Source: Candidatus Giovannonibacteria bacterium
Lineage (GTDB): Bacteria > Patescibacteriota > Minisyncoccia > JACPKW01 > UBA11713
DNA length: 64,000 nt
Reading direction: 5' to 3'
Assembly (NCBI GenBank): GCA_016176285.1
Contig: JACOXM010000002.1
Span: 10,917 to 74,916 of the forward strand
How positions within the stretch are numbered: the first letter of the stretch is position 1; every line of letters begins with the position of its first letter. The notes beneath the pieces were generated by a model that was not told where the DNA came from, made no database searches, and saw only the letters and a program-made list of their open reading frames with translations. Below are positions 1,748-22,750 of the stretch, one piece after another. The translations under genes were made by a program, and so were the position numbers.

Positions 1748-3457
1748 GTGGGTCTTTTATTAAACAGAATCCGTTATGCCTTGCGCTTAATGGGTGGGAA
1801 AGAGCGGGGGATATTATTAATTCTTTCGCTTCTTCTCTTTATAGGTTTCGTTGGAACGGCAAATTTAATAAACCAGCGTTTTTCGGTTATTGTTCCGGAT
1901 GAAGGGGGTACTATTAAGGAAGGAGTGCTCGGACAGCCGCATTTCCCGAATCCCCTTTTGGCTATTGCAGACACTGATCGCGATATTGTGAACCTTGTAT
2001 ATGGAGGGCTCATGAAGCCCGATGGAAAAGGCAATTTAATTCCGGAACTCGCTGAAAGGTATGAAATTTCATCAGATGGATTGTCTTACACCTTTTTTCT
2101 GCAAAAAAACGCAAAATTTCATGATGGGAAAAAAATTACCGCCGATGACATAATTTTTACAATTGAAAGCGCAAAAAACCCCGCGATAAAAAGCCCTTAT
2201 AGAGCGGGCTGGGAAGGAGTTGGAGTAGAAAAAATAGACGAAAACACAGTACGCTTCTGGCTAAAAAAACCTTACGCCCCGTTTCTTGAAAACACTACTA
2301 TCGGAATTCTGCCAAAACACCTTTGGAAAGATATTACGCCGGAACAAATCAGTCTTTCTGGGCTTACAATAAAGCCGATAGGCTCAGGTCCTTATAAAAT
2401 TTCGAGTATCTCAAGAAATGGATCCGTTATTAAAAAATATAATTTGAATTCTTTCTCCGGATATGTATCGGAAAAATCTTATATAAATAAAATTATTTTT
2501 ATCTTTTATCCATCTGAAGTTGAAATGATAAGCGCTTATGAACGCGGCGAAATTAACGCGATTTCGGCGGTTTCCCCCCAAAATCTGCAAAAAATTAAAA
2601 GAAAGGATGGAATTGTAAAAGGACTGAATCTTCCGAGAGTATTCGGGCTTTTCTTTAATCCAAACGAGCAAAATATATTTACAGAAAAAATTGTAAGACA
2701 AGCGCTTGAAATGTCCGCGGACAAAAAGAAAATTATTAAAGAAGTTCTCGGCGGATATGCCAAAGAAATCTCCTCCCCTATCCCAGAAGGAAGCTTCGGT
2801 GCGCTCACAAATAATGATTCAATTTACGATCCAGTCGGGGCAAAAGCGCTTCTTGAAAAAAACGGATGGAAATTTAACAACGGCTCGAAAACATATGAAA
2901 AAGCGGCAAAGGGCCAGCCAACAAAAGAGCTGAGTTTTTCAATTTCAACTTCCAACGCCCCGGATCTTGTGCGTACAGCAGACATATTGAAAAAAGGATG
3001 GGAAAACATAGGTGTAAAAGTTGAGATACGGGTATTCGAAAATGAAGATCTGAAACAAAATGTAATAAGGACAAGAAAATATGATTCGCTTTTATATGGG
3101 GAGATTGTCGGCCGCGATCCCGATCCGTTCGCTTATTGGCATTCTTCGCAAAGAAATGATCCCGGATTAAATCTTGCGCTTTATACGTCTTCCAAGGTCG
3201 ACAAAATTCTGGAGGATGCAAGAAGCATCGTCTCGCGTGAAGACCGGGCACAAAAATACGCCGACTTTCAAAAAGAAATTGCCGCAGATTCACCAAGTAT
3301 TTTTTTATACTCTCCGGATTTCATTTATGTTATCCCAAAAAGTTTAAAGGGATTCGAAAACATAAATATAGTCACGCCAGCAGAACGATTTAGCAGCGTT
3401 AATAAATGGTATTTCGATACGCGATATGTCTGGAAAGTCCTTTATAAGAAAAGCTAG
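1748..3457 (+). CDS. ABC transporter family-5 (peptide/nickel) substrate-binding protein
   Basis: LIPELAE..YTFFL..KFHDG..TADD, PIGSGPY motifs; N-terminal TM. Confidence 0.88.
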   Translation: MGLLLNRIRYALRLMGGKERGILLILSLLLFIGFVGTANLINQRFSVIVPDEGGTIKEGVLGQPHFPNPLLAIADTDRDIVNLVYGGLMKPDGKGNLIPELAERYEISSDGLSYTFFLQKNAKFHDGKKITADDIIFTIESAKNPAIKSPYRAGWEGVGVEKIDENTVRFWLKKPYAPFLENTTIGILPKHLWKDITPEQISLSGLTIKPIGSGPYKISSISRNGSVIKKYNLNSFSGYVSEKSYINKIIFIFYPSEVEMISAYERGEINAISAVSPQNLQKIKRKDGIVKGLNLPRVFGLFFNPNEQNIFTEKIVRQALEMSADKKKIIKEVLGGYAKEISSPIPEGSFGALTNNDSIYDPVGAKALLEKNGWKFNNGSKTYEKAAKGQPTKELSFSISTSNAPDLVRTADILKKGWENIGVKVEIRVFENEDLKQNVIRTRKYDSLLYGEIVGRDPDPFAYWHSSQRNDPGLNLALYTSSKVDKILEDARSIVSREDRAQKYADFQKEIAADSPSIFLYSPDFIYVIPKSLKGFENINIVTPAERFSSVNKWYFDTRYVWKVLYKKS

Positions 3458-4148
3458 CGACCTCTCCCCGGTTTTATTCGTGCCTTCGACGGATAAACGC
3501 GCAATTTATGAAGTCGAAAGGGAGCAAAACGACCCGGAAGAACAAGGGCTTTTACAAAAATTAAAAATAAGGTATGATATAACAACCATTTTCCCAGGAC
3601 TCATTGGAAACGAGCTCCCTAAAACCTTCGGGCATTACCATCCAAGGAATTTAAGCGGCGTTGCTTATCCGGAAATATACGAAGTTATTGAAAACCGCGC
3701 CTGGTATTTGATTCAGCGGCCGAATAAAAATCAGCCAAAAGTAATCGAGGAAGTTTACCTGATCGAAACCAAGCAAAACGAAAAAGCTTTGATTCCCCCG
3801 GGCTTCGGGCATGTAACCATCAACCCAGAAAATAAGAATCTTGTAATGGCAAATTTTGTAGCAAATGGGTTTGATTTTGACTATCAAACTTATGAAAATC
3901 TCAGGGGAAGCGCTTACTACCTTCTTCACGCGGATAAGGACGAGTTAGTACGCCTTGAAAAAAACTCATATTACGATAAAGTTCCTGAAATAATAAAACT
4001 AAAGCCCAAGGAAATACCTGAATTAGGAATCACGTGGGATGTGCCGCTTTATGACATGATAAAAAAGCCGGAGACATTGGATTTTTTGATCCATCCGGAA
4101 AAATATCTGGAATTACTAACAATAAAAAACTGCTTTACGAAAATTTAA
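3426..4148 (+). CDS. Cupin-type glucose-6-phosphate isomerase
   Basis: RYDIT..KTFGHYH..YPEIYEV..IPPGFGHVTIN cupin PGI motifs. Confidence 0.8.
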   Translation: MSGKSFIRKASDLSPVLFVPSTDKRAIYEVEREQNDPEEQGLLQKLKIRYDITTIFPGLIGNELPKTFGHYHPRNLSGVAYPEIYEVIENRAWYLIQRPNKNQPKVIEEVYLIETKQNEKALIPPGFGHVTINPENKNLVMANFVANGFDFDYQTYENLRGSAYYLLHADKDELVRLEKNSYYDKVPEIIKLKPKEIPELGITWDVPLYDMIKKPETLDFLIHPEKYLELLTIKNCFTKI

Positions 4149-4182
4149 TCTTTTAGGGCGAGTGGCGAAACTGGCAGATTCA

Positions 4183-4301
4183 CCCTCCCACCAATGCCCT
4201 CCTGGCGGAACTGGTAGACGCGCTGGCTTCAGGAGCCAGTGGGAGAAATCCCGTGGAGGTTCGAATCCTCTGGAGGGCACACGAGGGCATTGGTGGGAGG
4301 G
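4183..4301. repeat. Perfect 19-bp inverted repeat bracketing the inner tRNA
   Basis: CCCTCCCACCAATGCCCTC (4183-4201) / GAGGGCATTGGTGGGAGGG (4283-4301). Confidence 0.95.
4196..4279 (+). tRNA. tRNA-Leu(CAG), intact inner copy
   Basis: GCCCTCC/GGAGGGC-A acceptor, CTGGC-TT-CAG-GA-GCCAG anticodon arm, type II variable arm, GGAGG-TTCGAAT-CCTCT. Confidence 0.93.
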
Positions 4302-4390
4302 CAAGCGCTTCAGGAGCCAGCGGGGTCAAACCCATGGAGATTCGAATCCTCTCTCGCCCACGTAAATTATTTATCAACTAATAAGAGAAT

Positions 4391-6136
4391 ATGACACCAC
4401 AAAGACAATCCGTCGGACGGATTAAAACAAGAACGGCGCCCGCACTAAACGAAATGCCGAAACAAGCCGAAGGACCCGTTTTAAAATTTCTTCCACTGGG
4501 AGGATGCGGCGAGGTTACCAGAAGCTGCTACGTTTACGAATACAAAGATGACATTGTTATCGTGGACATGGGGCTGCAATTTCCGGAAGAGGATATGCCG
4601 GGAATAGATTACATTATTCCGAACGTGGAATATCTTATTCCAAAAAGAAAAAATATCCGAGGAGTGATCGTCACCCACGGCCACCTCGATCACATCGGGG
4701 CGATTCCCCACTTACTCGAGCCGTTGGGAAACCCCGTTATCTATACGAAACCCCTGACGCGCGGAATGATTTTGAAACGGCAGGAAGATTTCAGAGGAAC
4801 ACCTCACCCGAAAGTTGAACTCGTTGATGAAAACACTAAATTGAAATTAGGTTGTTTCGACGTGGAATTTTTCCATGTAAACCACAACATTCCGGATTCC
4901 ATGGGCGTCGTTCTTCGATCACCCGCGGGCACGGTCGTGCATACGGGCGACTGGAAATTCGATCACACTCCCGTGAATGAGCGTCCCGCCGACGTAGAGC
5001 GGCTCAAACAAATCGGCAAGGACAACGTGCTGCTTTTAGTTGCCGACTCGACCGGATCGCAATCCCCAGGAAAAACAATATCCGAATCGGAAATACAAAA
5101 AAATTTGGATGAAATTTTTACGAAAGCTAAGGGACGAATTATCGCCGCTACATTTTCATCCTTGTTAACGCGCGTACAGCAATTAATTTGGCTAGCGGAA
5201 AAATACGATAGAAAAGTTCTGATCGAGGGAACCTCAATGAAACAAAACGTTCAAGTTGCCCAGGAACTTGGATACCTGAAAATTAAAAAAGGCACAGTAA
5301 TCGGGCGCGAAGACCTCGCCCATACACCCAAAGAAAAAATAATAGTCGTATGCACCGGCGCGCAGGGCGAAGACAGGGCCGCGCTTATGCGCATCGCAAA
5401 CGGCGAGCATAAATACTTGCACTTGGAAAATACGGACTCCGTTATATTCTCTTCATCGGTAGTGCCGGGGAACGAAGCGTCCGTACAAAGATTAAAAGAT
5501 ATCCTATATAAAAAGGCTGAGAAGATTTTTCATTCAGAATCAATGGACATACATGCTTCCGGGCACGCAAAGGGAGACGATCTTAAAGAAATGATTCAAT
5601 TGATAAAGCCGAAATATTTCATTCCAATGCACGGCAATTATTTCATGTTAAAACTTCATTCCGATTTGGCAATTGATGCCGGAATAAAAAAAGAGAATGC
5701 TGTTATCGCGGAAGACGGAGAAATTATAGTTATGGATAAAAATGCCATTCGTAAATCCGGGCAAAAAGCCCCCGTAAACCTGATAATGGTTGATGGATTG
5801 GGCGTGGGAGACGTTAAAGAAGTTGTGCTTCGCGATAGGCAAATGCTCGCGGAAGACGGAATATTCGTAATTATATCCGTTGTAGATTCCGAAACCGGAA
5901 AAGTTAAAGGATCGCCGGATATTATTTCTAGGGGCTTCGTTTATTTGCGCGAATCCCGCGATCTCCTCTCGCAGGCAAGGCATTTAATTAGAAAAGTAAT
6001 CGAAGAATCCACCTCGCAAATGCACCCAATCAACTGGACCTTTCTCAAAGACGAACTCCGTGAAGAACTCGGAAAATTCTTATTCCGCAAAACAGAAAGA
6101 AGACCGATGGTATTGCCGGTGATCATCGAAGTCTAA
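4391..6136 (+). CDS. rnj: Ribonuclease J
   Basis: THGHLDHIG MBL motif, HTGDWK, HASGHA, C-terminal RRPMVLPVIIEV. Confidence 0.96.
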   Translation: MTPQRQSVGRIKTRTAPALNEMPKQAEGPVLKFLPLGGCGEVTRSCYVYEYKDDIVIVDMGLQFPEEDMPGIDYIIPNVEYLIPKRKNIRGVIVTHGHLDHIGAIPHLLEPLGNPVIYTKPLTRGMILKRQEDFRGTPHPKVELVDENTKLKLGCFDVEFFHVNHNIPDSMGVVLRSPAGTVVHTGDWKFDHTPVNERPADVERLKQIGKDNVLLLVADSTGSQSPGKTISESEIQKNLDEIFTKAKGRIIAATFSSLLTRVQQLIWLAEKYDRKVLIEGTSMKQNVQVAQELGYLKIKKGTVIGREDLAHTPKEKIIVVCTGAQGEDRAALMRIANGEHKYLHLENTDSVIFSSSVVPGNEASVQRLKDILYKKAEKIFHSESMDIHASGHAKGDDLKEMIQLIKPKYFIPMHGNYFMLKLHSDLAIDAGIKKENAVIAEDGEIIVMDKNAIRKSGQKAPVNLIMVDGLGVGDVKEVVLRDRQMLAEDGIFVIISVVDSETGKVKGSPDIISRGFVYLRESRDLLSQARHLIRKVIEESTSQMHPINWTFLKDELREELGKFLFRKTERRPMVLPVIIEV

Positions 6137-6180
6137 AAAATAAAGAGGCGAGAATTTATTCTCGCCTCTTTATTTTTTAG
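6133..6180. terminator. Bidirectional intrinsic terminator
   Basis: 23-bp inverted repeat with A/T tails between convergent genes. Confidence 0.8.
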
Positions 6181-6187
6181 AACTTAC

Positions 6188-21677: not shown

Positions 21678-22750
21678 CATTTTTATTTTTATTTGTTCTT
21701 GCCGCATTCCCGCTCGTATCTACCGGACAAGAACTTTACCAAGACACAAAAGGAACCTTTCGAGCAAAGGTTCTTGAAATTATTTCTGAAGAAAAAACTA
21801 TATTGCCGGTAACGGAAACAGAAGTCCTGGTTCAGACGCTTAGCGCGGAAATTCTTGACGGCAATAAAAAGGGCGAGATAATCACTATCGAAAATGACTT
21901 CGTTAAGCTCTCGAAAGGAGATGAATTTTTTGTTAATTATCTCGTAACTATCGACGGACAAGAAATATACAGCGTATTCGAGCCCGACCGGCGGCAAACT
22001 CTCTGGATATTTTTAGTGATCTTCATGGTGGTTGTGATTTTTTTCGGTGGATTTCAGGGAATCAGATCTTTATTCAGTCTCGCGGCAGGTTTTTTTGTAA
22101 TAATTTATTTTCTCCTTCCCTCTATTTTGCGCGGCGTCTCGCCTCTCCTTGCCGGAATCGGATTTTCTATCCTGATTCTCGCGTTCGCGATGTATCTCAC
22201 ACACGGATTTAAGAGAAGAACGCATGCCGCCTTCATCGGAACGGTTTTAACCATCATAATTGTCGGTATACTCGCGTCTCTCGCCGTCTCATCCGCAAAA
22301 TTGAGCGGCTTCGCATCCGACGAAGCTGTTTATTTAAATCTGGACACCCGGGGAAAGCTGAATTTCGCCGAATTGCTTGTGGTCGCCATAATTATCGGGG
22401 CCCTGGGTATTTTGGATGACATTGCGATAACTCAAGCATCTGTAATCGAAACCCTTAAAAATAACTTGCCAGACATAAAAAGAAGGAAAGCTTACCTGGA
22501 AGCCCTAAAAGTCGGCAGAGAACACGTTGGGGCGCTAGTAAACACATTGGCGCTTGCATATGTTGGAGCATCCTTGCCGCTCCTGTTGCTCTTTTATGGG
22601 ACAGACCAAACTCAAAGCTGGTCCATTATTACAAACAGAGAAATTTTCGCGACAGAGATAATCCGCACGATAGCCGGTTCCATCGGCTTGATCCTTGCCG
22701 TCCCCATCACAACCGCCCTCGCGGTATTGATGCTTATAAGAAAAAGCTAG
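21662..22750 (+). CDS. YibE/F family membrane protein
   Basis: GALG.LDDIAITQ, LVNTL.LAY.GASLP, EI.RT..GSIG. Confidence 0.88.
   Translation: MAERLTFLFLFVLAAFPLVSTGQELYQDTKGTFRAKVLEIISEEKTILPVTETEVLVQTLSAEILDGNKKGEIITIENDFVKLSKGDEFFVNYLVTIDGQEIYSVFEPDRRQTLWIFLVIFMVVVIFFGGFQGIRSLFSLAAGFFVIIYFLLPSILRGVSPLLAGIGFSILILAFAMYLTHGFKRRTHAAFIGTVLTIIIVGILASLAVSSAKLSGFASDEAVYLNLDTRGKLNFAELLVVAIIIGALGILDDIAITQASVIETLKNNLPDIKRRKAYLEALKVGREHVGALVNTLALAYVGASLPLLLLFYGTDQTQSWSIITNREIFATEIIRTIAGSIGLILAVPITTALAVLMLIRKS

Follow-up and report, generated by a model that had tools for sequence, protein, structure and literature searches.

A hairpin-bounded element carrying a tRNA-Leu(CAG) gene inside a second tRNA-Leu(CAG) gene of a Patescibacteria genome

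How does a complete tRNA gene come to lie between the arms of a hairpin that itself interrupts a tRNA gene of the same anticodon? Such a locus is found just upstream of the RNase J gene in the window, the 64,000-nucleotide stretch of a Candidatus Giovannonibacteria contig analyzed here. The genome (638 kb in 16 contigs, 99.46% complete) has 45 tRNA calls, and the inner tRNA of the nested locus is the only Leu(CAG) among them. The best explanation, which we put at roughly three chances in four, is that the insert is a gene-less element bounded by a hairpin, that it arrived with a foreign cargo tRNA, and that a small GIY-YIG nuclease, of the type that the same arms enclose elsewhere, likely moved it in trans. 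It is likely a selfish mobile element that inserted into a gene for which it brings a replacement copy. The mobile-element reading is preferred because related hairpins are found with nothing inside or with a small nuclease gene between the arms; we infer mobilization by the nuclease and targeting by the cargo. The features of the locus, in window coordinates, are:

3426-4148: glucose-6-phosphate isomerase gene (Pfam PF06560), its stop 7 nt before 4156
4156-4178, plus strand: 5' piece of the resident tRNA-Leu(CAG), tRNA positions 1-22; 23/23 identical to the intact gene of relative G009, 22/23 to that of G003 and 16/23 to the inner tRNA
4179-4305, plus strand: inserted element, 127 nt; its ends are common to 28 other tRNA-in-tRNA loci, 55 distinct empty hairpins and one locus (L391) that encloses a GIY-YIG gene
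4179-4182, plus strand: left terminal tetranucleotide TTCA, conserved, outside the stem
4183-4201, plus strand: left arm; its last part, 4196-4201, doubles as the 5' acceptor strand of the inner tRNA, whereas 4183-4195 are element sequence alone
4196-4279, plus strand: cargo tRNA-Leu(CAG), complete, without encoded CCA (ARAGORN, Rfam, cloverleaf)
4280-4289, plus strand: 10-nt apparent mirror of the element-tRNA junction, or trailer and 3' acceptor of an earlier cargo allele; the competing pairing arises here
4283-4301, plus strand: right arm, a perfect inverted repeat of the left arm
4302-4305, plus strand: right terminal tetranucleotide CAAG; this end varies among family members
4306-4360, plus strand: 3' piece of the resident tRNA-Leu(CAG); 4309-4360 are 44/52 identical to G009 and likewise to G003
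4391-6136, plus strand: RNase J gene, 30 nt 3' of the locus

The element consists, in order, of TTCA, a 19-bp arm, the complete tRNA-Leu(CAG), the second arm and CAAG. A preliminary description of this DNA had placed a perfect 19-bp inverted repeat at 4183-4201 and 4283-4301, and these coordinates hold; when the 205-nt stretch was base-shuffled 200 times, perfect arms reached 12 bp at most. One point is corrected: the insert is 4179-4305, with a conserved 4-nt end beyond each arm. As had been described, a distinct and complete tRNA-Leu(CAG) lies between the arms: ARAGORN calls it, Rfam model RF00005 matches 4196-4279/80 at 53.3 bits, and the cloverleaf is canonical. Both programs called a single tRNA at the nested locus, the inner one; gene finders report it alone and miss the element. 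The end of the left arm is indeed the inner 5' acceptor strand (overlap 4196-4201), and the seven bases GAGGGCA are present at both 4273 and 4283.

The outer tRNA retains a fully paired acceptor stem (4156-4162 with 4353-4359, 7/7). Its 3' part holds, in order, three nucleotides able to close the D-stem, a 6-nt gap, the anticodon loop, the variable arm, the T-arm with an A53:C61 pair, and the acceptor strand. This outer copy had been thought decayed, and it carries two defects, the T-stem mismatch A53:C61 and the loss of 6 nt from the anticodon arm, including its 5' strand. Exact removal of 4179-4305 restores the D-stem, but the product is called a pseudogene, with the 6 nt of the anticodon arm missing.

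Two similar tRNA pieces 81 nt apart are what an assembly chimera of two tRNA-Leu loci might leave behind, and misassembly had been raised as a danger from the start. In sequencing run X1 a single unitig covers 3700-4894 with 0 differences. In runs X4, X2 and X3 both junctions are bridged by two overlapping unitigs each, again with 0 differences. The runs are of groundwater; X1-X3 may be the source samples of the genome, and X4 is another sample. The unitigs are assembled contigs rather than raw reads, and a single study supplied the four runs, a point in favor of the chimera; run X5, from a second study, covers 4310-4533 only and bridges neither junction. With both junctions bridged by the unitigs of four runs, and the same architecture present in 28 other records, the chance of a chimera is negligible. 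In runs X2 and X3, loose ends before window position 4203 were also seen, in which an element of another arm type apparently lies directly before a tRNA-Leu, after D-loop-like sequence; they appear to belong to another organism.

Relatives of the genome indicate which of the two tRNAs is the resident. In 9/9 relatives of the family, RNase J is preceded by a tRNA-Leu(CAG). In two of them, G009 and G003, it is intact and has the outer acceptor type, so that the intact outer tRNA looked for in relatives was found. The inner tRNA matches the G009 gene at 62/84 positions and its own outer gene at 16/23 and 40/52. Cargo and host differ at six of the seven acceptor pairs, and the host 5' piece is unchanged from G009. 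Because the intact genes of G009 and G003 match the outer pieces while the inner tRNA differs, the outer gene is, on these identities, the resident allele and the inner tRNA a different allele that came from elsewhere. The earlier view that a palindromic element split the resident tRNA, and that a tRNA of the same anticodon sits in its loop, is supported. Its further step, a later capture of the tRNA by the loop, is less likely; the cargo is a foreign allele and probably arrived with the hairpin.

The locus is variable across the family. A third acceptor type is present in five relatives, and a fourth in G007 behind a hairpin-split remnant. G006 has its own nested case at the RNase J locus, with a fifth allele inside. 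In genome G282 (L339), the tRNA-Leu remnant before RNase J has the left arm of the window element, starting at the identical place in the D-arm, and further insertions are stacked after it. The nested tRNA-Leu(CAG) of G006 (L003:1295-1700) also has a tandem duplication of about 100 nt, and both of its broken 5' pieces have a 20-nt palindrome in the D-arm; the arms of this locus show G-T compatible changes.

Comparison of the window locus with G006 gave the shared ends, T(T/C)CA-CCC on the left and GGG-CAAG on the right. A search pattern was built from the right end placed between two T-loops, leaving out the left end and the inverted repeat. The scan yielded at least 119 loci (41/64 parts scanned) and 37 viral loci. 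The pattern matches, at least 159 in all, fell into three groups: tandem tRNAs (81), loci lacking an inner tRNA (27), and loci with both an inner tRNA and a remnant (51). The left tetranucleotide was outside the pattern, yet it was found (at most one mismatch) together with a complementary arm in 29 of these 51, the stem being at least 6 bp. One of the 29, in an archaeal record (L070), looks like chance and was set aside, leaving at least 28 loci, one of which is the same sequence as the G006 locus and is counted once. They are 112-161 nt long, and their cargo includes Ala(CGC) in eight, Val(CAC) in five, Val(TAC) in five, Leu(CAG) in four, and Leu(GAG), Met and Glu in two each. By record title the hosts are Patescibacteria groups in 19, unnamed bacteria in five and other phyla in four, with binning as titled. 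The window genome itself has a second family copy, a tRNA-Ala(CGC) in a split tRNA-Ala (contig C5:1788-1909, 122 nt, 12-bp arms). Viral sequences gave little: an inner tRNA plus remnant was present in 4/37 loci, the left end in 0/4 of these, and six left-end matches all lacked an arm.

Inspection by eye places the right junction immediately 3' of a CA in the target, in the anticodon loop at 35/36 or 37/38 or in the D-arm at 24/25. The CA is lost at the insertion sites, and the left junction shifts by a few bases. The list of target tRNAs would be explained by this preference, because these anticodon loops contain CA. The window locus is an exception, where the resident D-stem needs CG at that place.

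The left end was also searched alone, giving 71 matches in 40/401 genomes of the class compared with five for a reversed control. Eighteen of the matches are empty hairpins, 22 have cargo, and 31 have no strict partner arm, being chance hits, cut contigs or imperfect arms. Right-end tetranucleotides of several different kinds were found in this search. CAAG had been built into the right-end and empty-hairpin patterns, and therefore its constancy in those searches is not evidence. Nine further distinct elements with an intact tRNA came from the left-end search, three of them with the tRNA on the opposite strand. Six are clearly in a homologous tRNA gene and two have short exact junction matches; the last, L322, does not exceed the control. 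Two flanks of a tRNA-bearing element had contaminated that control, and for this reason its maxima are overestimates in the case of Gly and Met cargo. Among the elements examined, none that bears a tRNA lies clearly outside a tRNA remnant.

Some of these elements are closely similar and sit in dissimilar genes. L293 and L330, from different families, share arms, and their cargo is 96% identical (25/25 in the T-arm and acceptor), while the outer genes match at 16/25. L074 and L080 have cargo 94% identical in outer genes that match at 17/25. Because near-identical units sit in different host alleles and different families, cargo and hairpin likely travel together as a unit. In L045, cargo and host agree at each of their final 25 bases, a pattern that duplication in place would also explain.

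Short-loop hairpins with the same ends were sought in a metagenome scan, which gave 69 loci, 55 of them distinct and 35-50 nt long. In 53/55 the arms pair at bases that the pattern left free. The commonest length is 35 nt (27/55), which adds 33 nt if two bases are replaced. These hairpins lie both between and within genes, in frame where translated; the others were judged by eye. One of them, L245, has the same 16-nt left and right ends as the window element around a short loop. The empty element, arms with a short loop, had been predicted beforehand. In L243 an empty element lies in a tRNA remnant that adjoins an intact copy, the intermediate expected if capture followed insertion. The cargo can also be another RNA gene. 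In L345 (300-480) and L347 an Rfam-called 5S rRNA gene is carried in a hairpin inserted in a 5S gene; L314 appears by eye to be a 5S-in-5S case as well. Four gene-less elements with the same arms, 119-144 nt long (L291, L307, L324 and L334), seem to sit at start codons and to have their 4 terminal bases repeated.

Such empty forms bring up a two-step history in place, in which an empty hairpin inserted in the tRNA, a copy of the gene was captured later, the product spread by homologous recombination, and the match between cargo and target came about by selection. Empty hairpins are common, L243 has its empty hairpin in a tRNA remnant with an intact copy alongside, and the cargo of L045 equals its host across the last 25 bases. 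Moreover, Leu(CAG) may be dispensable, as Leu(TAG) is present in the genome and might read CUG by wobble. Against these points, cargo and host in the window differ at six of seven acceptor pairs while the host 5' piece is the same as in G009, near-identical units of element plus cargo occur in different outer alleles and different families, and no tRNA-bearing element is clearly outside a tRNA remnant. A two-step origin is accordingly unlikely, though it is the strongest competitor to arrival with the cargo.

The window element itself carries no gene. Nuclease-carrying elements are about 290-310 nt long, each with one small GIY-YIG gene. Three of 311-312 nt have the window arm type and an 85-aa GIY-YIG gene inside; in L391 the exact TTCA...CAAG ends enclose a nuclease gene. 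A search with the protein only, for the nuclease of this clade (clade A), found it in 12/301 genomes at E<=1e-27. Nine homologues are new beyond the first three, and 7/9, found by protein alone, are enclosed by arms of the window type. Inverted repeats of 19-26 bp surround six of the nine and one of 10 bp surrounds another; in one the repeat is one-sided and in one there is none. The CAAG end was seen in 0/12 clade-A nuclease elements. By eye, many nuclease elements lie at start codons with the terminal 4 bases repeated.

A second clade can be followed from the window genome, which has six small GIY-YIG genes. One of them, at C5:8083-8340, encodes an 86-aa protein in a 290-nt hairpin-bounded element of a different arm type (clade B; L268:1465-1765). 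It has 37 homologues, of which 30 were examined; 28 have arms of at least 10 Watson-Crick pairs and 30/30 fit the arm motif. Clade-B-type arms enclose tRNAs too, for example in L150 and L080. The clade-A proteins form one supported branch (97/100), in a tree of few columns whose bootstrap had not settled, and arm types never cross clades. On this comparison, nuclease clade is tracked by arm type. The 85- and 86-aa proteins match PF01541 at E about 1e-16 to 1e-17, and their residues Y5, Y16 and E63, read from the translations, are one residue off Y6, Y17 and E64 of SsnA; NCBIfam gave no match above cut-off for three nuclease proteins. A cognate nuclease for the window arm type was sought in this genome, with 0 matches at E<=1e-27. 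Beside the elements there is no enrichment of GIY-YIG genes (1/28 filled, 4/69 empty and 1/28 control loci); the link with the nuclease showed itself in the genes between the arms. No clade-A relative was confirmed in viral contigs.

Other GIY-YIG genes of this genome have tRNA neighbors. Two small ones on contig C1, minus strand (319-534 and 22229-22435), each lie between a hairpin-interrupted 5' tRNA fragment and an intact tRNA (Ser GCT and Met CAT), with other hairpins. The right end of the C5 nuclease element provides the nuclease stop codon and apparently also the start of the next gene.

The closest likeness is to the Ssn system. SsnA, a 94-aa protein, binds and cuts single-stranded DNA a few bases from a hairpin; the loop is not needed and two half-stems suffice (PMC11893778). 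Its authors liken the NTS-ssnA-NTS arrangement to an insertion sequence (PMC11893778; Chenal et al. 2025). As set out in the accessible text of that paper, both systems have single-domain GIY-YIG proteins, of 85-86 aa here and 94 aa in SsnA, tied to short hairpin repeats; in both, nuclease clade and repeat co-vary and residues beside the hairpin are conserved. They differ in hairpin layout: the present family has a single hairpin whose two halves lie on either side of the gene or cargo, whereas Ssn has a whole hairpin on each side. Furthermore, the present elements have tRNA, 5S and protein genes as insertion sites, and they bring along an entire copy of the RNA gene that they disrupt. A degenerate SRM motif was found in 0/42 nuclease loci and 0 times in 4141-4370. 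The main text of PMC11893778 is silent on tRNA, CPR and Patescibacteria, and 12 of its 14 supplementary files have no Patescibacteria names.

Integrative islands raise a second comparison, and with it the idea that the locus is what remains of an integrase-driven island that once brought in an entire tRNA and lost the rest. In the account given with Islander (PMC4383910), islands split a target tRNA gene and restore its function with element sequence, as here. They do so with a tyrosine integrase, a gene fragment and kilobases of DNA, unlike the whole tRNA held in 127 nt between inverted arms. The ends of the window element are an inverted repeat and not direct att repeats, and the cargo is a whole separate allele with both host pieces outside it, in place of a hybrid restored gene. 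Both host pieces are dead. These ends recur across many tRNA species as well as 5S and protein genes, the architecture is in none of the viral matches examined, and tyrosine integrase PF00589 had 0 matches in this 99.46% complete genome (control 14/14). An island relic is hence a far-fetched origin for the window element.

A third possibility is that the same element was moved by a Y1/HUH transposase of RAYT or IS200/IS605 type and not by a GIY-YIG protein. The elements are like REP/REPIN sequences mobilized by RAYT (TnpA-REP), as these are described in the accessible text of PMC8266576, in being short, non-autonomous palindromes with a conserved tetranucleotide by the stem and a dinucleotide target, and one RAYT cleaves at CA. 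The genome's one Y1 gene is, moreover, flanked by palindromes ending in CAAG. However, these belong to a different sequence family, and the window element has no GTAG foot, its ends being TTCA on the top strand and CTTG on the bottom strand. Any recognizable gene seen between arms of the window type was GIY-YIG and not Y1. Y1 genes are near 1/69 empty and 0/28 filled loci, and frequent intragenic insertion and an RNA-gene cargo set the family further apart. Movement by a Y1 enzyme is consequently improbable. The Y1 transposase-like gene encodes 213 aa (C14:9599-9820, L267, minus strand), and its flanking palindromes, 23-25 nt long, recur elsewhere in the genome. The RAYT guide-pairing rule, applied to the element ends, predicted a target on the strand opposite to that observed and was not adopted. 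IS110/IS1111 identity was rejected as well, IS110-type recombinase PF02371 having 0 matches in this genome.

The remaining reading places the function in RNA. The insert would be an intron or split-tRNA leader giving the outer tRNA, or a pairing switch for tRNA processing or for RNase J expression; that competing pairings control tRNA processing had been offered earlier as an alternative. In a secondary-structure model that ignores tertiary structure, with cloverleaf arms fixed, pairing of the left arm with the right arm is favored by 5.0 kcal/mol over the native acceptor. Without constraints, the probability of the native acceptor is near 0 in the full precursor and 0.89 before the right arm is made, so that in transcription the native acceptor is predicted to form first. 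The alternative pairing itself thus finds support in the model, and it could slow maturation. The proposed regulatory role has little support, as a separate contiguous mirror copy of at least 4 nt is present in 3/35 elements, with two more, interrupted, by eye. Because most relatives lack the competing pairing, it is probably a by-product of arm homogenization, for which template switching is a mechanism, or of a cargo swap that left part of an earlier cargo allele.

Excision gives a similar answer. ARAGORN called a tRNA in 9/1330 single excisions, three of them Leu(CAG), which favors an RNA device, but precise removal of the element yields a sequence called as a pseudogene. Of the Leu(CAG) products, two were drawn; they have a collapsed D-arm or keep element bases, and each has an anticodon-stem mismatch and A53:C61. 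Elements occur in both orientations relative to the tRNA, the splicing endonuclease PF01974 has 0 matches in this genome, and no intron family reached E<=10 in 3900-4600 (Rfam), for which group I and group II introns were rejected. Archaeal intron-containing and split tRNA genes have tRNA halves bordered by complementary GC-rich arms, as here. Unlike them, the present locus is bacterial, has no splicing endonuclease match, gives no canonical tRNA on excision and holds a complete tRNA inside. An RNA device is very improbable. At C5:32011-32293 of this genome, ARAGORN calls a tRNA-Phe(GAA) with a 210-nt intron.

The window element has the defining features of none of the known families considered. 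By analogy, its logic would be that of an integrase island and its parts those of an Ssn system. No published description of this hairpin family was found in the literature searched, whose reach excluded most subscription journals.

How might a mobile element of this kind move? First, element and cargo would enter as one piece, probably single-stranded DNA, in which the arms pair with the cargo in the loop; this we consider likely. Second, a cognate single-domain GIY-YIG protein would recognize the stem and cut close to the 4-nt ends, much as SsnA cuts next to its own hairpin, which is probable though less so. Since SsnA works on two half-stems without a loop, the loop would be free for cargo. 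Third, with nearly even odds, the cargo would pair with the homologous resident gene and bring the ends there, which would explain the match of cargo and target. Host repair would then seal the insert, usually just 3' of CA on the element strand and here between A22 and C23. Finally, the cargo would take over the function and the split gene would decay, as in the 6-nt loss and A53:C61. Uptake of DNA and processing of the tRNA are plausible, because the genome has a competence-family (ComEC) gene (C12:30691-31404, with one TGA inside the match), an RNase P RNA and a gene of the CCA-adding family. Among the points that weigh against the mobile-element reading, the nuclease alone does not account for the joining of the ends, and the usual CA target is not evident in the sequence at the window site.

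We tentatively propose, at somewhat less than even odds, that these elements represent a class of mobile DNA without transposase or integrase. A hairpin clamp and a single-domain GIY-YIG nuclease would provide the machinery, and the tRNA or 5S cargo in the loop would be the address, directing insertion by homology into the same gene. Insertion would be harmless, and core translation genes would be serially replaced across families of Patescibacteria. If the cargo sets the target, insertion would be redirected by exchanging the cargo, which is of interest for genome engineering. With this family, an open question of the Ssn paper also becomes testable, namely whether a lone GIY-YIG nuclease and a hairpin act as a mobile element; matched clades of arms and nucleases, with empty, cargo-bearing and nuclease-bearing forms, are available to compare.

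Genes for tRNA and rRNA are usually treated as a stable, vertically inherited core. At the RNase J locus, a single family has five acceptor types and two separate nested cases, and insertions are stacked in G282; the tRNA genes there therefore appear to have been replaced repeatedly. In G008 (L032:770-1480), the tRNA-Leu(CAG) is separated from RNase J by a gene that by eye resembles a short-chain dehydrogenase, and directly upstream of the tRNA there is a GIY-YIG gene. At the far end of the RNase J gene in the window, a perfect 24-bp inverted repeat with a 2-nt loop (6132-6181), the longest in a scan of the genome, overlaps the stop codon and is probably a terminator.
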